Shown: positions 3,256-15,263, counted from the first letter of the stretch. The stretch is 64,000 nt of DNA from a virus (IMGVR_UViG_2839610755_000002), one strand, 5' to 3'. The notes: generated by a model not told the origin, from the sequence alone. Program-made: numbers and translations.

Positions 3256-4119
3256 ATGAACAAGCTATCTATGGGGGTGTTTCGCTGTTCAAGTGTCAGC
3301 GAAATATTGAAATACATTAGGGCAATAACATCTCACCGGGCGCCGATTAAATACGGCGTGGAAAAGGTGGAAGGCAAAAGCTATGACCGACTGCGCCGGG
3401 AGGCGAATCAGAAGGCGATAGATTTGCTTAATTCGCTGGTGGACGGCGCGACACTGACAGATGAACAGCGCCAGATCCTGGCTGGGTACACCGGTGAAGG
3501 TGGCATTGGCGGGGCCGTCTCCGAATATTACACACCAAAGCCGATCGCTGAAGGCGTCTGGGAGATCATGAAGCTCTACGGCGCGGACGTAGGTAACACT
3601 CTGGAACCATCGGCGGGAACCGGCGTTTTTAATGAGACAAAACCGGTTGGTACGGTGATGACCGCGACTGAGATCAGCAGTGTTTCCGGTCGTATAAACC
3701 AGTTGTTACACCCGGAAGACAGCGTACAGATTTCCCCGTTCGAACAGCTGGCTATAAGCACGCCTAACGATTCATTCGACCATGTTGTGGGTAACGTTCC
3801 GTTCGGCGGTCGTGATAACACACGCAACATCGATAAGCCTTACGCAGAAGAAACGGACATGGGTTCTTACTTCATGCTCCGCATGCTGGACAAGATAAAG
3901 CCTGGCGGATTCATGTGTGTGATTGTGCCGCCGTCCATTGTTTCAGGTTCAAACATGAAGCGGTTACGCCTGCGCCTATCCCGTAAAGCTGAATTTCTTG
4001 GCGCTCACCGCTTGCCTACCGGTACTTTTGACGCAAACGGGACCAGTACGGTCGTTGATGTGGTGCTGATGCGTAAACATCCGGCAGAGATGGCTGAGAA
4101 AATCCCCCCTGGTGGATGA
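3256..4119 (+). CDS. darB: DarB N-terminal segment (N6-adenine methyltransferase domain), ends at a frameshift
   Basis: MTase motif I-like LEPSAGTGVF and motif IV-like VVGNVPFGG. The ORF stops at 4117-4119 just after a C6 tract while the next frame continues. Confidence 0.75.
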   Translation: MNKLSMGVFRCSSVSEILKYIRAITSHRAPIKYGVEKVEGKSYDRLRREANQKAIDLLNSLVDGATLTDEQRQILAGYTGEGGIGGAVSEYYTPKPIAEGVWEIMKLYGADVGNTLEPSAGTGVFNETKPVGTVMTATEISSVSGRINQLLHPEDSVQISPFEQLAISTPNDSFDHVVGNVPFGGRDNTRNIDKPYAEETDMGSYFMLRMLDKIKPGGFMCVIVPPSIVSGSNMKRLRLRLSRKAEFLGAHRLPTGTFDANGTSTVVDVVLMRKHPAEMAEKIPPGG

Positions 4120-7100
4120 AGGCACTCTTGAATCGGCAAATGTGCTTTGGCCAACGTTTATTTCTGGCAAGTGGTTCGAAAAGGACGGCCGCCGGTTTGT
4201 TCATGGCACCCAGGAGAAGGGTTTCCAGGGGCGTATTGAGGTTCGTGCCGACGGGCAGATTGATAACCTGGCTCTTAAAGCGAAGCTGATTCATCGTTTC
4301 GAAAGTCGTATCGACTGGTCTTTGCTCGATATGGCTGAACCGTCACCGACCGCAGATGTTGTTGATGAAGGGGAAATGCGCCTGATTAATGGCGTATGGC
4401 AAAAATATGCTGGTGGTCGCTGGATTGAAGCTGATGCCGGGAAGGAGCTGAAGATTGATGTTGCCAGTTATGGCGCGGATAGCTGGGAGGCTCTTCAGCG
4501 TAACCTGACTACCACAGAAGGTCGTCTCGGCATGACATTTACCCAGATGGCAAATGTCCGCGATAAGTACACCACATCAATCAGCGACGATATGGTGCAG
4601 CTGGTGGACTGGATTAACAGCCAGCCTGAAAAATACCGTGAACGCTTGTATCGCGGGGCGATGATTGGCCGGATGTTAATTGAATATCAGGATATGAAGG
4701 CCGCCGGGCATAGTGCTGAACAAATCGAACAGCAGCGCCTTTCTCTGGTATCCCGTTTGCAGGCAGAGATTGACCGCTTTGGTAATCCTGGTCGCGGTCC
4801 TATAGCGAAATTGTCGGGGAGCGGTGCGCGCGCCTGGTTTGCTTTCCGTGGTGCGATTAAGCTGGATGGCACTATTTCTGACGAGCTGACAGGAAAGCTG
4901 GTTACGCATGATTCCAGCGCCAGTTATGACTCCACCAGCTATCAGGACATCCTGCGTTATCTCTATAGCGATCTTACCCGCGATCCAATCCAGCTCGATG
5001 ATTTCCGCCTTGCGTTTACCGGCGAACTGCCAGCCAGTGATAAAGAGTTGCTTAATTTATTGGCCAGCACCCCTGGTATTGCGGTTTCACCGTATGGCGG
5101 GATTGTTCCGTTCGCCCGCGCCACCAGCGGCGACATTAACGAGATAGTGGCTCCAAAACAGGAATTCCTCGCCACGCTCCCCGACGGTCCAGTAAAGAAC
5201 AACGTCCTTAATCAGCTGGCAGCGATCGAAGAGAAGCGCATCAAGACGCCAGCAGAGAATATCCGCTTTAAGCTCAATAGCCGTTGGTTCGACCGTTCCG
5301 TCATTCTGGAATTTTTGCAGGAAAACGGCTATCCGGATCTGCGCTATGTGCAGTCAGTGCAGCTGGAAGGCGACGAAATGGTTTCTGACACCTATCACGG
5401 TGGTGATGGTCTGTTCGTCGGACACCGATACGGTGTCGTCCAGCGCAAGGATAAAGAAACAGGCGAGATCCGCTACGAGTGGGACCGTAAATCAGGTGAA
5501 AACGCGACCGGGTTCCCGGCACAGCTGGAAAAGTATCTCAATGGTGCGCGTATCGGTGGCAAAGATAGCGCGACGGCGAACGGCTACCGCGAGCAGATGG
5601 CACTGCTTGAGGACCAGTTCAATAAGTGGCTCAAGACGCACGATCGCTACGATGAGCTGGTTGCCAAATACAACGATGTGTTCAATAGCAATATCCCGTA
5701 TGAACACTCTGGCGATCCGCTTGGGTTGAAGGGATTAAGCGGTAAGCGCCAGCCATTTGATTACCAGAATAGCGAGGTGCGCCGACTGTCCGAAGATGGG
5801 CGCGGCATCCTGGGCTTCGGCACCGGGCTGGGTAAAACGACGACCGCGCTGGCGCTTGAGGCGTTCAACTATGAGAACGGTCGCTCCACCCGTACTGCTT
5901 ATGTAGTGCCTAAAGCAGTGCTGGAAAACTGGTATTACGAAGCAAAAGAGTTCCTGAGTGAAGAGGCATTCAGTAACTACCTGTTCGTCGGTCTTGATGT
6001 GCTGATGGATGGCGATCAGATTCGCCAGGTGCCGGTGCTCGATGAGAACGGTAAACCTGTTCTTGGTACTGATGGCACTCCAGTTATGCGCGATGCTCTT
6101 AAGCTGGCAGATGAAGCCACTATCACGGCGCGGATGAACGCGATCCCGCACTCAAATTACCGTGCAGTCGTGTTTACCAAAGAACAATACGCCCGCATTC
6201 CGCTACGTGATGACACCGTAGATGAGCATGCACAAGACATGCTTTATGACTTCGTTGCTGCCGGGCGTGTGGCCAGCGCAATGGACTCCGATTCCCATCG
6301 CAAAGAGGCGGCGCGTCGCCGGGTATTGTCGGAGTATTCAGATACCGGTACCGAAAAAGCAGAGAAGTATCCGTACTTTGAGGATATGGGCTTCGACAGC
6401 GTGATTGCTGACGAAGGCCACAACTACCGCAATAGCTATAAAAATGGTCGCGAAGCGTCACAACTGGCCTATCTGCCCACCAGCGCGGTGGCGCAATCGG
6501 CGCGGGATATGGCAATCAAAAACGCGTACCTGATGAAAAAGAATGGTGGGCGCGGACCGGTTCTCCTGACTGCAACGCCAGTAGTTAACACCCCGATCGA
6601 TGCATACAACATGCTTTCTCATGTGCTGCCGAAGGAATACTGGCAGAAGATGGGGATCTACGGTCCTGATGACTTCGTTAAATTCTTCGGCAAGACCAGG
6701 CTGGAAACGGTACAGAAAATCAGCGGCGAAGTTGAAGAAAAAATGGCGCTGGTGGGTTTTGAAAACCTTGATGCGCTGCGCGGCATATTCCATCGCTGGA
6801 CAACGCTTAAAACGGCGGAAGACGTTAAGGATACCGTGGAGATCCCGGAACTGGACGAACACCAGCAGGATGCACCACTTACTGAAGAACAACTGGCGGC
6901 GTATGAAGAATTGCGTCAGCAGGCGGAAGCGGCAGCCAAAGCCAACAATGGCGTAACGACCTCGGTCAATGAAGACGGCGTGATTGAGCACGAGAAAGCC
7001 CGTCCGATCTTCTCAATAATCAGGGATATGGACCGCGTATGTACTGACATGGACCTGTACTATCGCCGGATCACCTATCGTTTCCTGCCGGAGTATGCCG

Positions 7101-10024
7101 ATGCGGTGCAGCAGCTGGCGGACAGTTTGCCTAAACAAGCCACCAGCGAAGACGACGACAGTGATGATTCAATCACGCAGCAATCGCAATACTCCCTGAT
7201 AGATAAGGGCGAGTTTATTCAGTTGCAGGTTCCGGAAGCGTTCGAGCAGGAAGTGAATAAGCGCCTGGCCAGGTTTGGCATTGACGAACAGACCGTAACT
7301 CACCCCGTTACGCCCAAATACGCGAAGCTGATTGCCACGCTGAAGGAGTTTTTCCCGGAAGGTAAGCAAATCATCTTCACCGATGAAAAAACGCAGCACC
7401 AGAAGCTCAAGCGCATTATCTGCAATGCTCTTAACCTTGAACCTTCAAAGGTGGGGATCCTGAATGCTCAGACGGTTGCCGAGGCAGGTAAAACCGGTCA
7501 GAAACTGAAAGCTGTTAAACCGCCGAAAGAGCTACCGGATGAACCAACAGATGCGCAGATAGCGAAATACAACGAGCAAATGGCTCGGTATGACGCCTAT
7601 ATCGCGCAGCAAAATGAAATGTCGTTGGGCGGTCTGGAAAAGATTGCAGCCGACTTCCAGGAGGGCCGGACTCCGATCATCATCTGCAACAAAAAGGCAG
7701 AGGTGGGTATCAACCTGCATCGAGGAACGACGGATATCCACCACCTGACGTTGCCGTGGACTCCAGCCAGCATCGCACAACGTAACGGTCGCGGTGCACG
7801 AGTTGGCTCCAACCGTGCAAGCGTTCGCGTTCACTACTACTGCGGCAAGGGGTCTTTCGATGAATACCGACTGAAGACGCTGAAGCGTAAAGCAGGCTGG
7901 ATCTCCGATATCCTCCGTTCAGATAAGTCAGAAATGGAGAACGCCGACGCCAATGACATGATCGAAATGCAGATGTATACCGCGAAGGATGACGGCGAAC
8001 GTCTGGCAATGATGCAGGTTCAAATGGATAAGGCGAAAGCTGCGAAACGCGCTCGCCAGAAAGAACAGGCTACTATCGACCTTCAGAACTACATCAAGGC
8101 GCAGCACGCAGCTGGTGAGGATGTGGAGGTACTTACCGCTGAATTGGAGCGAAGCAAAGCGGAACTTGAAAAGACCACCGCCGACGTCGCCAAATTCAAA
8201 CAGGCGGTAATGGCCAAAGCAGCTGATAACGCAGACTGGAAAGCCCGCTGGGGTAGCGTCCATCACACAGACCGTATGTTGTTAGCACAGTATCGCGCGT
8301 CGTTGAAAAGCGCCATTCAGCGCAAGGCTAATATCTCTCAGGCCATCTCCCGCTATGAGAAATTATTGAACCGTACTCAGAAGGCCGCGACGGATATCAA
8401 ACGCCTGCGCCCGCTGGTGGAGGATGCAATAAATAAAGGCATTCTGGATGTTGATCCTGATCTGGTTAACCATGCGAATGAGTTCCTTGTTATCGGCGAT
8501 CGCTCATGGCGTGTAGGCCAATACTATGATTGTGCCGGTGATATCGTTCGCATTAAGTCGCTGGACTTCGACAGCCAGCGCGCAGACGTGGAGATCATCT
8601 TTACCTTCAAAGGTACCAAATCGGGTAACTGGGATGTGAAGACGCTGGATAAACAGGTTGATGTAACTCCCGATGAAGATGCTGTTATGCAGAAAATCAG
8701 TGGTGGCGTCTCCATCGCCGGGATTAACGACATCATTTCCTGTGACGATTTCTACCGTTTCCAGCAGCGCGGCATGATCAAAATCACTGACTCATACGGC
8801 GTTCAGACTACAGAGTCAGGCTATAGCATTGATTTTGTTGGTACCTATACGTACCCACTGAAGCATGCGGTTTACCCGGATCGCCGTGACGGCGCGCTGA
8901 AGTCGTCAATTGCAAAATGGGTGCTTGGTATGATGTCGGAAGGGAATAACCGCCAGATCCGTTCGGCAGAAACATTCCTGGTTGAACTGTTTGGCTCCAA
9001 TTATGGCGATGTAATCGCGTCATACGGAGATACGCTATCCCCTGAAGCAATTCAGGAGAAAATAGCGGATGCGATCGCCAGAATGCCGGAAAAAACAAAC
9101 CAGGGGGCTACTCGTAACGGGGATTCTGAACTTGAGGTCACCAATGCTATTTTCGGTACCAATGAGTTCCGGGCGTCAGATTATGAGATCACCACAGCAC
9201 AGTTTGGCACCATTGGCATTTACAGCAATAAAGACGAGATCAAGCAGGCAATGGACGCAGCAAGCGCGCGCATTGCAGCAGAACGGAAAGCCAATCTGAA
9301 TCATGCAGTCGCCGCGCTGACTCAATCGTGGGTAACAGCAATCAGGGAGGCCGCCACCACAGGAAAAATCACACCGGCAATTGCGGATGTCGTAAACGAC
9401 GGCTCTAAATTTATGGATGCCTATAAAATGGATGCGATGAAGTTGCCATCAGCCTATGGTCAACTCAGCTATCGCATGACCTACAACCTGGTATCAATGT
9501 TTTCCGACCTTGCCATCCTTGGGCTGGTGGATCTTAACGAGGTTACGCCGGACTTGCTCAGCATGCGCAAGAATCATGTGGAGATATTGCAGAGAATTAA
9601 CACGGTTCTTGCCGGGCGCACCGATGAAGAGAAACAGGCCGACGCTGATCGGATAAACCTGGCCCTTGGCAACATCACGGAGGAAGAAATTGCCGCCAGA
9701 AACGAGAAACAAGAAGAGTTATCATCAATACAGGGTGATGCCACCAGCATAGCTCAGTCTCTTGGTCTGAATTATCGCGTATCCACTGCCGACCTGAAGA
9801 TGATGTACGCACCAAAATTCGCCGCTGGAGAGGTATTTGGGCTTCAGGAGGCGTCCGGCATGAAAGGCGTTCTTTTCCGTGCTAAAGACGCAATCAAGGA
9901 AAAATTCGGCGCTCGCTGGCTGCCAGCGAAGGCGAAGAACAGCGATTTCCCGGGTAACTGGTGGATTATCGAGACAAAACACAACGTGGCGGACGTTCTG
10001 GCCGTCATCCAACAATACGCATAA
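4112..10024 (+). CDS. darB: DarB C-terminal segment (helicase-like large protein)
   Basis: 1970-aa ORF overlapping the previous one by 8 nt in another frame. 287+1970 aa is about the recalled 2255-aa P1 DarB. Walker-like GFGTGLGKTT and DEGHN motifs. Confidence 0.75.
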   Translation: MDEGTLESANVLWPTFISGKWFEKDGRRFVHGTQEKGFQGRIEVRADGQIDNLALKAKLIHRFESRIDWSLLDMAEPSPTADVVDEGEMRLINGVWQKYAGGRWIEADAGKELKIDVASYGADSWEALQRNLTTTEGRLGMTFTQMANVRDKYTTSISDDMVQLVDWINSQPEKYRERLYRGAMIGRMLIEYQDMKAAGHSAEQIEQQRLSLVSRLQAEIDRFGNPGRGPIAKLSGSGARAWFAFRGAIKLDGTISDELTGKLVTHDSSASYDSTSYQDILRYLYSDLTRDPIQLDDFRLAFTGELPASDKELLNLLASTPGIAVSPYGGIVPFARATSGDINEIVAPKQEFLATLPDGPVKNNVLNQLAAIEEKRIKTPAENIRFKLNSRWFDRSVILEFLQENGYPDLRYVQSVQLEGDEMVSDTYHGGDGLFVGHRYGVVQRKDKETGEIRYEWDRKSGENATGFPAQLEKYLNGARIGGKDSATANGYREQMALLEDQFNKWLKTHDRYDELVAKYNDVFNSNIPYEHSGDPLGLKGLSGKRQPFDYQNSEVRRLSEDGRGILGFGTGLGKTTTALALEAFNYENGRSTRTAYVVPKAVLENWYYEAKEFLSEEAFSNYLFVGLDVLMDGDQIRQVPVLDENGKPVLGTDGTPVMRDALKLADEATITARMNAIPHSNYRAVVFTKEQYARIPLRDDTVDEHAQDMLYDFVAAGRVASAMDSDSHRKEAARRRVLSEYSDTGTEKAEKYPYFEDMGFDSVIADEGHNYRNSYKNGREASQLAYLPTSAVAQSARDMAIKNAYLMKKNGGRGPVLLTATPVVNTPIDAYNMLSHVLPKEYWQKMGIYGPDDFVKFFGKTRLETVQKISGEVEEKMALVGFENLDALRGIFHRWTTLKTAEDVKDTVEIPELDEHQQDAPLTEEQLAAYEELRQQAEAAAKANNGVTTSVNEDGVIEHEKARPIFSIIRDMDRVCTDMDLYYRRITYRFLPEYADAVQQLADSLPKQATSEDDDSDDSITQQSQYSLIDKGEFIQLQVPEAFEQEVNKRLARFGIDEQTVTHPVTPKYAKLIATLKEFFPEGKQIIFTDEKTQHQKLKRIICNALNLEPSKVGILNAQTVAEAGKTGQKLKAVKPPKELPDEPTDAQIAKYNEQMARYDAYIAQQNEMSLGGLEKIAADFQEGRTPIIICNKKAEVGINLHRGTTDIHHLTLPWTPASIAQRNGRGARVGSNRASVRVHYYCGKGSFDEYRLKTLKRKAGWISDILRSDKSEMENADANDMIEMQMYTAKDDGERLAMMQVQMDKAKAAKRARQKEQATIDLQNYIKAQHAAGEDVEVLTAELERSKAELEKTTADVAKFKQAVMAKAADNADWKARWGSVHHTDRMLLAQYRASLKSAIQRKANISQAISRYEKLLNRTQKAATDIKRLRPLVEDAINKGILDVDPDLVNHANEFLVIGDRSWRVGQYYDCAGDIVRIKSLDFDSQRADVEIIFTFKGTKSGNWDVKTLDKQVDVTPDEDAVMQKISGGVSIAGINDIISCDDFYRFQQRGMIKITDSYGVQTTESGYSIDFVGTYTYPLKHAVYPDRRDGALKSSIAKWVLGMMSEGNNRQIRSAETFLVELFGSNYGDVIASYGDTLSPEAIQEKIADAIARMPEKTNQGATRNGDSELEVTNAIFGTNEFRASDYEITTAQFGTIGIYSNKDEIKQAMDAASARIAAERKANLNHAVAALTQSWVTAIREAATTGKITPAIADVVNDGSKFMDAYKMDAMKLPSAYGQLSYRMTYNLVSMFSDLAILGLVDLNEVTPDLLSMRKNHVEILQRINTVLAGRTDEEKQADADRINLALGNITEEEIAARNEKQEELSSIQGDATSIAQSLGLNYRVSTADLKMMYAPKFAAGEVFGLQEASGMKGVLFRAKDAIKEKFGARWLPAKAKNSDFPGNWWIIETKHNVADVLAVIQQYA

Positions 10025-10057: not shown

Positions 10058-10498
10058 ATGGCCACACTATCTGATACAATAAAACCGAATAAAACATATC
10101 TTGAGGCGGTACTCCGTACAGCGTTGTTAGGAAAGACAGAAGACGAATACGTTGATTTCTTCCTGTCAGGGCTACGCGGGCGATTACTGAAAAATCCCCG
10201 CCTGTACCGCAGCTATGGCCCATACTGGCCGGAAATTAAAAAATTATTACTGGAGCGCGGTTATGGTAATTTGGGTCGTCTCGTTGACCGTGACGTTCGC
10301 AAAATTTACCGTTATGACCGCCCGGCGCTGACGCTCATAGCTGCGACGCTCTACAGCCAGGAGCGTTTTGATAACGGTCAGATATACTCAGCCTGGCATT
10401 TATTGCCAGTGCCTGAAGAAGTTGACGACCAGGACTATGAGTTTGAGTCTTACGATTTGGAAGTTGAAGCCTTAGCACAGGCTGGAGAGAAAACTTGA
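10058..10498 (+). CDS. Ulx-like hypothetical protein
   Basis: 146-aa ORF between darB and lxc, the position of P1 ulx (recalled). Confidence 0.45.
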   Translation: MATLSDTIKPNKTYLEAVLRTALLGKTEDEYVDFFLSGLRGRLLKNPRLYRSYGPYWPEIKKLLLERGYGNLGRLVDRDVRKIYRYDRPALTLIAATLYSQERFDNGQIYSAWHLLPVPEEVDDQDYEFESYDLEVEALAQAGEKT

Positions 10499-10743
10499 AA
10501 AAGCGATACTACACAGTAAAGCATGGGACGCTACGAGCATTACAAGAGTTTGCTGATAAGCATAACGTTGAGGTGCGCAGGGAAGGGGGAAGTAAAGCTC
10601 TGCGCATGTACCGTCCGGACGGGAAATGGCGTACGGTCGTCGATTTCAAAACTAACAGCGTTCCCCAGGGCGTCCGCGACCGGGCATTCGAAGAATGGGA
10701 GCAGATCATCATAGATAACGCATTGCTCCTGAATGCTGATTGA
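10495..10743 (+). CDS. lxc: Lxc-like small protein (C1 corepressor)
   Basis: 82-aa ORF overlapping the ulx stop by 4 nt; size and position as P1 lxc (recalled). Confidence 0.5.
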   Translation: MKKRYYTVKHGTLRALQEFADKHNVEVRREGGSKALRMYRPDGKWRTVVDFKTNSVPQGVRDRAFEEWEQIIIDNALLLNAD

Positions 10744-10804
10744 TTTCCTGTTAGGTCACTTTATTTTTTAGAGTGGCCTAAATTACTCTTAATGAGGATG
10801 TGAT

Positions 10805-11755
10805 ATGAATGTTTTTATTGATACAAATCTATATTTAGAATTTTACAGGATGGGTAGAGATAAACTAGATGAGCTGGATAAAGTATTTGCCTTACATCAA
10901 TATGGTCGTTTAAAACTTTGGTTACCAGAGCTTTTAGTGAATGAGTTCTGGAGAAATCGTTCTAAAGTTCTCTCTGAAACCATAAAGGAAATAACAAAAG
11001 ATTATAAGCCCGCGCTTCCCCAGATTTTTAGGCAACATGAAAAGCATTCACAATTTAATGATAAGGTTATAGAAGCAGGTAGGTTAAAGAATGAAATTAT
11101 TACAGATATCCAGAAATTGTTTAAAGAGGAGGCTTTGGCTGCCGATATTGTAATTAAAAGGATTTTTGATGCAGCATCTAAAATAGAGGCTGATGATGAA
11201 ACAATAGATAAGGGGAAACTTCGATTTGATCTTGGAAACCCGCCAGGCAAAAATAAATCATATGGTGACGCAGTTAATTGGGAATGTTTGCTAAAAGCGA
11301 TACCAGACGGTGAGGATATATATATCATAACTGAAGATGGTGATTATAAAAGTGCCTTTATAAAGGATGATATGAATGAATATTTGAAGCATGAGTGGAA
11401 AAAAAAGAAAAATTCAGAACCACATATCTATTCCCGCTTATCAGAGTTTATAGGCGAGCACTTTCCTCAAGCTAGTAACTTGGTGGAAATGGAAGTTAAT
11501 CTCACTATAGATGAATTACGACACTCTGGCAGTTTTGCTACAACACATCGAGTTGTAGCAAAATTATTAAAGCTCACTCACTTTACACAAGAGCAAATCC
11601 TAAAAATAATTGATATTTATTTTGAAAATGATCAGGTTGGTTACATCAAAGATGATGATGATGTGAAACTTCTTGCCAGAAGACTAATATCATTAGGTGA
11701 CGAGGATAAAGATCCTGAAGGGATGCTGGAGACATTCCGTGTATTTATTGATTAG
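10805..11755 (+). CDS. PIN-like nuclease-domain protein with uncharacterised C-terminal domain; candidate stand-alone defence/abortive-infection gene
   Basis: 316-aa ORF in a visibly AT-rich cassette. N-terminus MNVFIDTN plus GDAVNWE and IITEDGDY give a PIN-like acidic pattern. Sits where P1 has res/mod. Confidence 0.6.
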   Translation: MNVFIDTNLYLEFYRMGRDKLDELDKVFALHQYGRLKLWLPELLVNEFWRNRSKVLSETIKEITKDYKPALPQIFRQHEKHSQFNDKVIEAGRLKNEIITDIQKLFKEEALAADIVIKRIFDAASKIEADDETIDKGKLRFDLGNPPGKNKSYGDAVNWECLLKAIPDGEDIYIITEDGDYKSAFIKDDMNEYLKHEWKKKKNSEPHIYSRLSEFIGEHFPQASNLVEMEVNLTIDELRHSGSFATTHRVVAKLLKLTHFTQEQILKIIDIYFENDQVGYIKDDDDVKLLARRLISLGDEDKDPEGMLETFRVFID

Positions 11756-11761
11756 TATAAT

Positions 11762-11780
11762 GGGCGCATAGTTAGCGCCC
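11762..11780. terminator. stem-loop GGGCGC-atagtta-GCGCCC between convergent genes
   Basis: Perfect 6-bp GC stem directly after the PIN-like gene stop and the mat-like gene end. Confidence 0.4.
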
Positions 11781-11787
11781 AATAAGT

Positions 11788-12429
11788 TTAAAGATAATTA
11801 TCTTTACCAGTTAATGAACCTTTAGGCACTTTCCGCGCGGCAATTTCATGAGTAGCTTGAATTATATTCACTAGGGGACTTAGTAACGACGTATCCTGAT
11901 TGGCCTCAACTTCTCCAGCCATTGCCCTGATGTAGTCGGCGCTGGCAACGTTGTTGTATTCCGTCGCAAAGCAACATAGTAACGTCAGAACATGTTCTGT
12001 CGTTATTTCGCTCCAGTTGATGTTGAAAAATTCATCGCCTTTTTTATCGTGTTCGGAATCGAAGATGCTTTTGTGAAGGATGTATTTGCCGGATTCCTTG
12101 CGCGGTAACTTGATTGCTTTCTGGCGTTCCAGCTCCTTATAAATCTGCATTGCCTCAATTAGTACCGGCCTGCTGTTCATGAAGGGATCGCGCAACCTTA
12201 CACGCTGGCCAACTCGACCAGTAATAAAGCTGTTTTCCTCTTCCACCAGCACGATAAAACCCTTTTCCTCTTTTTCTCGCAATTCGCGCAGCAGCTGGAG
12301 TTCCATATCGCGGCGGCGTTCAGGGTAGCTGGTCCGCTCAGCCATTATCAGCTCGTTATTGATCCATGCAGCAGTCATTGACGCCGGTTTGCCGACGCTC
12401 ATCGAAACAACGCATATTTTCTTATCCAT
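11788..12429 (-). CDS. Mat-like protein (position of P1 mat)
   Basis: Track ORF 11788..12576; start moved to internal ATG (MDKKICVV) preceded by AGGGGG. Confidence 0.4.
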   Translation of the reverse strand: MDKKICVVSMSVGKPASMTAAWINNELIMAERTSYPERRRDMELQLLRELREKEEKGFIVLVEEENSFITGRVGQRVRLRDPFMNSRPVLIEAMQIYKELERQKAIKLPRKESGKYILHKSIFDSEHDKKGDEFFNINWSEITTEHVLTLLCCFATEYNNVASADYIRAMAGEVEANQDTSLLSPLVNIIQATHEIAARKVPKGSLTGKDNYL

Positions 12430-12618
12430 AGCGCCCCCTACAAAAAAGAAAAGCCACCAGCGGCGGCTTAGCAATACAACTGAAGGTAGCGCCCGGTACT
12501 CAGACTGTGCCGTCCATGGAATATTTGAAAAGGGATCCATCCGTACCGGGCGTGTGATGATTCTGACTGAAGTCACTTGTCAGTTGTCAATCATTTATCA
12601 TTAAAAATAATATATTTA

Positions 12619-15229: not shown

Positions 15230-15263
15230 ATAACTTCGTATAATGTATGCTATACGAAGTTAT
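15230..15263. other. loxP: loxP recombination site
   Basis: Exact 34-bp ATAACTTCGTATA-ATGTATGC-TATACGAAGTTAT (13-bp inverted repeats, 8-bp spacer). Confidence 0.97.

Follow-up and report, generated by a model that had tools for sequence, protein, structure and literature searches.

What does a P1-like phage-plasmid carry in the place where reference P1 keeps its EcoP1I restriction–modification genes? The question is raised by a 64,000-nucleotide viral sequence, IMGVR_UViG_2839610755_000002 (hereafter the window, meaning this whole stretch), in which a 1,044-bp insert separates lxc from mat. Its sole open reading frame (ORF) encodes a 316-amino-acid protein that joins a predicted PIN nuclease module to a C-terminal helical domain, which appears to be homologous to the distal region with which the defence protein DARNA reads single-stranded DNA (ssDNA). 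The gene quite probably serves defence, on the basis of its position, its neighbourhood and its domain content. More specifically, we consider it somewhat probable that it is a single-gene anti-phage cargo of the lxc–mat slot, an abortive-infection PIN nuclease coupled to a DARNA-like nucleic-acid sensor.

Domain architecture of the cassette protein

The P1-like backbone of the window comprises darB (to 10024), ulx (10058–10498) and lxc (10495–10743) on the plus strand, and mat, ref, c8/cra and cre on the minus strand. Between them lies the AT-rich, roughly 1-kb single-gene cassette that the initial annotation had described: the GC fraction is 0.33–0.36 over 10750–11800, against 0.48–0.52 in the left flank and 0.42–0.52 in the right, and the ORF leaves gaps of 61 bp upstream and 32 bp downstream (Table 1). 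An identical plasmid annotates the product as WP_001100381.1, a PIN domain-containing protein, and its AlphaFold2 model has a predicted local distance difference test score (pLDDT) of 90.9.

The N-terminal part matches the Pfam families PIN_12 (PF16289, formerly DUF4935; 3e-16) and PIN_8 (2.6e-13). The PIN_12 match scores 60.7 bits against a gathering threshold of 32 and aligns residues 3–181 with the full profile (1–172), and PF16289 is present in 120 of the 120 homologues listed. Across an alignment of 50 homologues, with identity down to 32%, D6, E47, D114, D155, D178 and D180 are each found in all 50 sequences, and the loop R140...GNPPGK...GD is likewise invariant. [quoted passage not shown] The PIN assignment made earlier is thereby confirmed by Pfam profile and model fold, two checks that had been named with it. 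The motifs then listed (MNVFIDTN, LPELLVNEF, GDAVNWE and IITEDGDY) are all present, but the module extends beyond the 190 residues allotted to it, to about residue 224, and the acidic residues numbered D177 and D179 are in fact E177, D178 and D180 of the EDGD motif.

The module boundary near residue 224 is drawn from ORF18 of Ralstonia phage RSA1 (L015 4968–5909), because this protein matches residues 1–224 only (hhalign probability 99.1%) and has a different C-terminus. In RSA1, a P2-like phage, the PIN_12-type gene lies between the tail genes gpS and gpV on the opposite strand, which we take to be the orf30 accessory position of P2. The nearest structural matches are VapC-type RNases, not FEN-like nucleases; Foldseek against PDB gave only weak PIN matches, and neither the protein nor the family profile matched any PDB entry by sequence. 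DUF4935 has been assigned to the VapC group as a family of mono-cistronic genes of unknown function (Matelska 2017, PMC5499597). We predict that the PIN module is a metal-dependent nuclease, most likely an RNase.

Residues 225–316 form a compact helical-repeat domain in the model and fold alone at a pLDDT of 95.8. This domain of about 92 amino acids replaces a 125-residue C-terminal part that had been left unassigned. Some viral-contig relatives have a Pro/Gln-rich linker between the PIN module and the C-terminal part, which argues that the latter is an independent domain; in two relatives of about 395 amino acids from IMG/VR contigs (L035 5962–7182 and L036 5908–7182) this low-complexity linker is 40–70 residues long. 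The PADLOC model PDC-S34 matches the domain in 50 of 50 family members (1.2e-11), over model positions ~299–370 of 384 only, and the window protein matches the PD-T7-3 model at 7e-5 over residues 178–281 only.

PD-T7-3, reported as a defence system by Vassallo 2022 (PMC9519451), is DARNA, which combines an N-terminal HEPN transfer-RNA nuclease activated by ssDNA with a C-terminal domain (amino acids 160–456). The distal C-terminal part of DARNA contacts ssDNA bases: F368 and W406 form stacking interactions with thymine and adenine, respectively, Q403 is doubly hydrogen-bonded to thymine, and D372 recognizes cytosine. The substitutions F368A and W406A abolish defence, and the trigger is ssDNA presented by the phage's own ssDNA-binding protein (SSB). 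This account of DARNA follows its preprint (bioRxiv 10.64898/2026.02.22.705581), which makes no mention of PIN-type fusions.

Because the PD-T7-3 lead looked spurious in default-filter and pairwise searches (see below), we re-tested it by profile–profile alignment, shuffles and reciprocal hidden Markov models (HMMs). To obtain a DARNA sequence, we back-translated the motif F-x3-D-x29-NQxYWxN, taken from the published contact residues, and searched viral contigs for it. The 17-kb viral-classed contig L020 (IMGVR_UViG_2585427757_000010) holds a full-length DARNA/PD-T7-3 gene (455 amino acids; minus strand, in the area of 4962–5084), whose product is confirmed as PD-T7-3 at 2e-164; true members match that model end to end at ~1e-160. 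With a DARNA profile of 44 aligned members of this protein's family, hhalign placed residues 231–316 of the PIN C-terminal profile on residues 355–446 of the whole DARNA profile (probability 80.7%, E 1.3e-5, score 41.1); longer PIN query profiles gave probabilities of 72% and 60%. Two hundred column shuffles had a mean score of 13.9 (standard deviation 2.4, maximum 21.2), and the reversed query scored 15.7. With HMMER filters off, the DARNA C-terminal HMM found 246 of 267 PIN-family proteins at E ≤ 10, 77 of them below 0.01 and the best at 1.3e-6, against 0.25 for the best decoy among 2,216 unrelated ORFs. Reciprocally, the PIN C-terminal HMM found 91 of 120 DARNA proteins, with the best decoy at 0.98.

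The best-conserved columns of the two families coincide. S241 (47/50 in the PIN family) falls on S365 (43/44 in DARNA), F244 (48/50) on F368 (37 F and 7 Y of 44), N275 (50/50) on N401 (43/44), Q277 (49/50) on Q403 (44/44) and W280 (33 W and 8 Y of 50; Y in the window protein) on W406 (18/44), and the region aligned by homology thus holds equivalents of F368, Q403 and W406. D372 (42/44) is not shared, its counterpart being H248 (37 H and 12 R of 50). On these sequence comparisons we regard the C-terminal domain as homologous to the distal ssDNA-reading region of DARNA; its probable role is to bind the bases of nucleic acids, and its specificity may differ. This predicted link, in effect a swap of effector on a known sensor, is what is new here. 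A search with the C-terminal profile returned 1,397 representatives at E ≤ 0.001, and the 150 of these that were listed had the same PIN architecture or its fragments throughout, with no other N-terminal partner.

Placed among known systems, the protein is by its sequence features a PIN_12 member and not a member of DARNA, VapBC or PDC-S34. It shares with PIN_12/DUF4935 (PF16289) the fold and acidic residues, a long helical insert that follows strand 2 and a mono-cistronic gene, and its HMM score places it in that family. It departs from the family as catalogued in its C-terminal part, for which no homologue among proteins of solved structure was reported (Matelska 2017, PMC5499597) and which we now link to DARNA and PDC-S34. 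Like DARNA, it appears to combine, in a single protein, an RNase-type effector at the N-terminus and a helical domain at the C-terminus, homologous over the last ~90 residues. Unlike DARNA, it has a PIN effector rather than HEPN and no Rx4H motif, is 316 rather than 455 amino acids long, lacks DARNA residues ~160–350, which build the dodecamer, and belongs to a family in which D372 is replaced by H or R; the full-length PD-T7-3 model does not match it. We rejected DARNA membership on the PIN_12 N-terminus and the partial PD-T7-3 match. The C-terminal ~72 profile positions of PDC-S34 match every PIN family member in the alignment, whereas positions 1–296 of 384 are unmatched even by the 395-amino-acid relatives, so the N-terminal part of PDC-S34 must be something else. 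PDC-S34 is itself a candidate only, and membership in it was rejected because the match covers 299–370 and not the full 384-position model. A VapBC toxin–antitoxin reading was likewise rejected: neither the 61-bp nor the 32-bp gap holds an antitoxin ORF, and the neighbours differ at every homologue locus. The protein is, moreover, twice the size of VapC, has the helical insert and the additional C-terminal domain, and comes without a VapB.

The lxc–mat slot and the loci of homologues

The initial annotation was right to place the EcoP1I genes of P1 at this position: in reference P1, mod and res sit exactly between lxc and mat. In alignments across cargo types, the left homology break falls precisely at the lxc stop codon and the right break inside the 3′ end of mat, which fits an exchange of cargo through recombination within the genes on either side. 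At the 3′ end of mat (window 11788–11860), conservation between cargo types is only partial, and mat alleles move together with cargo. With the lxc stop codon on one side, the 3′ end of mat on the other and conserved flanks beyond, the insert is cargo of the lxc–mat slot, and no flanking direct or inverted repeats pointing to a transposon or integron were found.

The slot holds mod and res (EcoP1I) in P1 and P7; a 373-amino-acid RelA/SpoT protein, CapRel(SJ46), in SJ46 and many plasmids; a SIR2 protein (435 amino acids), a YaaC protein with a 169-amino-acid partner or a DUF2971 protein (336 amino acids) in other plasmids; and the PIN gene in the window and its relatives. CapRel matches the PADLOC candidate model PDC-S33, the DUF2971 protein PDC-S31 and the SIR2 protein PDC-S25/ThsA-like. 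The YaaC family protein (346 amino acids) and its 169-amino-acid partner (L012 6691–8240, NZ_CP060921.1) have no PADLOC match at 1e-5; this two-gene cargo is another defence candidate. CapRel(SJ46) is anti-phage by experiment (PMC9712102), the res–mod region has been described as the low-GC 'highly variable region 1' in 54 P1-like elements (PMC9603915), and type III restriction–modification, dGTPase, PrrC and CapRel have been reported on P1-like phage-plasmids (bioRxiv 10.1101/2025.09.12.675607). Our literature search found no paper treating the lxc–mat PIN gene.

EcoP1I shares genomic position and orientation with the PIN gene and differs in all else compared: it has two genes over ~5 kb, discriminates by methylation, cleaves DNA and shares no sequence with the cassette. 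CapRel(SJ46) resembles the PIN protein in occupying the same slot in SJ46 and in joining an N-terminal toxic enzyme to a C-terminal regulatory or sensor domain in one polypeptide; it differs in being a fused toxin–antitoxin with a RelA/SpoT pyrophosphokinase and a capsid-protein trigger, encoded on the opposite strand (PMC9712102).

The cassette is carried by 23 PLSDB plasmids (among 716 matching plasmid records) and by phage JL22, and occurs in 30 of 5,426 complete E. coli genomes, every time on plasmids of ~90–100 kb. There are two alleles, one at ≥99% and the other at ~90% DNA identity. Between them (comparison with JL22) the synonymous divergence (dS) is 0.41 and the ratio of nonsynonymous to synonymous divergence (dN/dS) 0.08, while the flanks are ~97% identical, which argues that purifying selection on the gene is strong and that its origin differs from that of the backbone. 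The PIN ORF is a real, selected gene, and this cassette is confined to P1-like elements; a tblastn search of plasmids with the C-terminal domain found nothing beyond the cassette itself. Composition, the break at the lxc stop codon and the divergence of the alleles within near-identical flanks all uphold the horizontal acquisition proposed at the outset.

The wider PIN family is present in 25 viral contigs and in chromosomes, and its gene is solitary at every locus while the neighbours change. In an island of Klebsiella/E. coli type it has hsdM/hsdS on one side and Mrr and McrA-like genes on the other, along with CP4-57-type genes; in Pantoea it is in a prophage beside a serine recombinase; in Vibrio genes for giant helicases flank it; and in Serratia it adjoins HamA/HamB of Hachiman. 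A metagenome-assembled genome has it among AbiEi, type III restriction–modification, PIN_3 and FRG genes, and in Salegentibacter EndoU and DUF3800 genes precede it.

Expression signals and other features of the window

The initial annotation had credited the gene with a promoter-like region of its own. This did not hold: most of the 61-bp gap is taken up by the hairpin at 10751–10781, and a sigma-70 scan found no plus-strand site upstream of the ORF start. The hairpin is kept in the 90% allele and is likely an lxc terminator or attenuator; each alternative lxc–mat cargo opens with its own strong hairpin directly 3′ of the lxc stop codon. The mapped P2mod promoter of P1 overlaps that codon (P1 reference annotation), and its −10 element, TAAACT in P1, is degraded to TGATTT in the window. 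With both PIN alleles lxc ends in TGA; four other aligned cargo types and reference P1 have TAA at this codon, which in P1 belongs to the −10 element of P2mod. Transcripts of the PIN gene may instead start at the lxc promoters that P1 has within ulx, according to its annotation, and read through.

At the other end of the cassette, the stem-loop GGGCGC-atagtta-GCGCCC noted earlier was found at 11762–11780, and a T–A pair extends its stem to 7 bp (11761–11767/11775–11781; −13.7 kcal/mol). It is conserved in the JL22 allele and is a probable bidirectional terminator, although it does not satisfy the T-run rule of the terminator scan. There were no Rfam matches.

Table 1. Positions in the window of the cassette, its junctions and its predicted signals
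Feature	Position	Strand	Basis
lxc stop codon, left junction of the cassette	10741–10743	+	six P1-like elements with differing cargo, identical up to this codon and unrelated beyond
Hairpin with 13-bp stem between lxc and the PIN gene	10751–10781	+	terminator-like match; −17 kcal/mol, z −4.9, 0/200 shuffles as stable
Shine–Dalgarno sequence GAGGA, 6 nucleotides 5′ of the ATG	10794–10798	+	read from sequence
316-amino-acid ORF, predicted PIN_12 nuclease with C-terminal helical domain	10805–11755	+	ORF call, annotation, dN/dS, AlphaFold2 model
Extended PIN_12/DUF4935 module, predicted nuclease, residues 1–224	10805–11476	+	
C-terminal helical-repeat domain, residues 225–316	11477–11752	+	PDC-S34 match, hhalign to DARNA, reciprocal HMMs
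GC-rich 7-bp hairpin between the convergent PIN gene and mat	11761–11781		z −3.2 (plus strand), −5.6 (minus strand)
mat, 3′ end co-varying with cargo	11788–12540	−	annotation, right-junction alignment

Two further observations concern the backbone. In the window, darB (3256–10024) is broken into ORFs of 287 and 1,970 amino acids by one extra C in a C6 run at ~4104–4109, where phage JL22 has C5; the PLSDB table for the identical plasmid, which omits pseudogenes, lists no darB coding sequence. Either DarB has truly lost its anti-restriction function or the extra C is a sequencing error in the homopolymer. Positions 15230–15263 are a 34-bp loxP site (ATAACTTCGTATAATGTATGCTATACGAAGTTAT). Records of Lactococcus phage Q33 also contain exact loxP copies, as does a Nonomuraea record, with six of them; these may be leftovers of Cre-lox engineering and not natural homology.

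Proposed function and competing explanations

The suggestion that this is a stand-alone defence or abortive-infection gene has gained in support from the slot it shares with EcoP1I, CapRel(SJ46), SIR2, YaaC and DUF2971 cargo, from its solitary organization and from the defence islands in which homologues lie. Domain content points the same way, the C-terminal domain being shared with DARNA, which is validated, and with PDC-S34, a PADLOC candidate. We hypothesize that the PIN nuclease would be kept inactive in the lysogen until infection by another phage, when the C-terminal domain would bind exposed ssDNA, or some related nucleic-acid cue, and the nuclease would be switched on. The active enzyme would then cut cellular RNA (transfer, ribosomal or messenger RNA), halting the infection and sacrificing the cell. 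We infer both the RNA substrate and the abortive outcome; a trigger of ssDNA type is plausible, with a chance somewhat below even.

Several observations weigh against this hypothesis. PIN-like enzymes are able to cut DNA too. Under default filters only 1 of the 50 PIN family members matches the PD-T7-3 model, and pairwise BLASTP between the PIN protein and DARNA is not significant. Of the ~300 C-terminal residues of DARNA, the homology covers no more than the distal ~90, and the fold of the C-terminal domain is a generic helical repeat. DARNA binds ssDNA as a dodecamer that needs HEPN and the proximal C-terminal parts (bioRxiv 10.64898/2026.02.22.705581), and the PIN protein is without these dodecamer-building parts; with H or R at the D372 position, its ligand may also differ from that of DARNA. 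The Aeromonas and Labilibaculum loci are uninformative as to function, the sigma-70 scan described above gave the gene no promoter of its own, and in the literature searched for PDC-S34, PF16289 and PIN_12 we found no functional study or phenotype.

A different kind of defence nuclease would attack the invader directly, its C-terminal domain targeting the PIN module to phage ssDNA, replication intermediates or phage RNA and not acting as an allosteric switch for self-harm. Slot and neighbourhood speak for it as much as for an abortive system, the C-terminal domain is homologous, on the profile evidence, to a base-reading ssDNA binder, the flexible linker of some relatives would suit a tethered targeting domain, and the PIN-like superfamily contains DNA flap nucleases (PMC5499597). 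We nevertheless think it unlikely: the closest structural matches are VapC-type RNases and not FEN-like enzymes, DARNA, the sole characterised relative of the C-terminal domain, uses that domain as its activator site, and a constitutive ssDNA nuclease would endanger the replication of P1 and its host. Functions unconnected with other phages fare worse. The gene could serve the plasmid-prophage as a toxin for addiction or growth control, or its product could process RNA in the P1 lysogenic or lytic programme, but neither short flank holds an antitoxin ORF, the gene is rare among plasmids and E. coli genomes (at the counts given above) and interchangeable with bona fide defence genes, and homologues lie in chromosomal defence islands unrelated to P1; we judge such roles improbable. 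Least probable of all, in our view, is a counter-defence or host-takeover nuclease that degrades host or defence RNAs during the phage's own infection, in the manner of the darB/ulx anti-restriction genes. Its setting would suit that role, as it adjoins darB–ulx–lxc in the same orientation, with ulx annotated as Ulx-like anti-restriction, and the family occurs in viral contigs. Yet chromosomes harbour many of the homologues, within defence islands and not in phages, the other cargo of the slot consists of host-protective systems, and the C-terminal domain is common to a defence protein.

Returning to the sensor-coupled abortive nuclease that we favour, its C-terminal domain raises a broader and more tentative idea, namely that the distal DARNA domain is a portable ssDNA-reading sensor carried by at least three effectors: HEPN in DARNA, PIN_12, and the N-terminal part of PDC-S34. 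If so, sensing of SSB-presented ssDNA would be a widespread trigger logic in defence, and a phage-plasmid would have to avoid tripping its own sensor during replication, a host-like SSB being one possible route.

Confirmation of the proposed function would give a role to PIN_12/DUF4935, a widespread family catalogued as of unknown function, and would mean that the ssDNA sensor of DARNA is modular and has been reused with another nuclease. It would also make the lxc–mat slot of P1 a compact, easily mined site of defence exchange, in which YaaC with its partner, DUF2971 and SIR2 are ready candidates. The question bears on how P1-like phage-plasmids, which are clinically common carriers of extended-spectrum β-lactamase genes, may shield their hosts from therapeutic phages.
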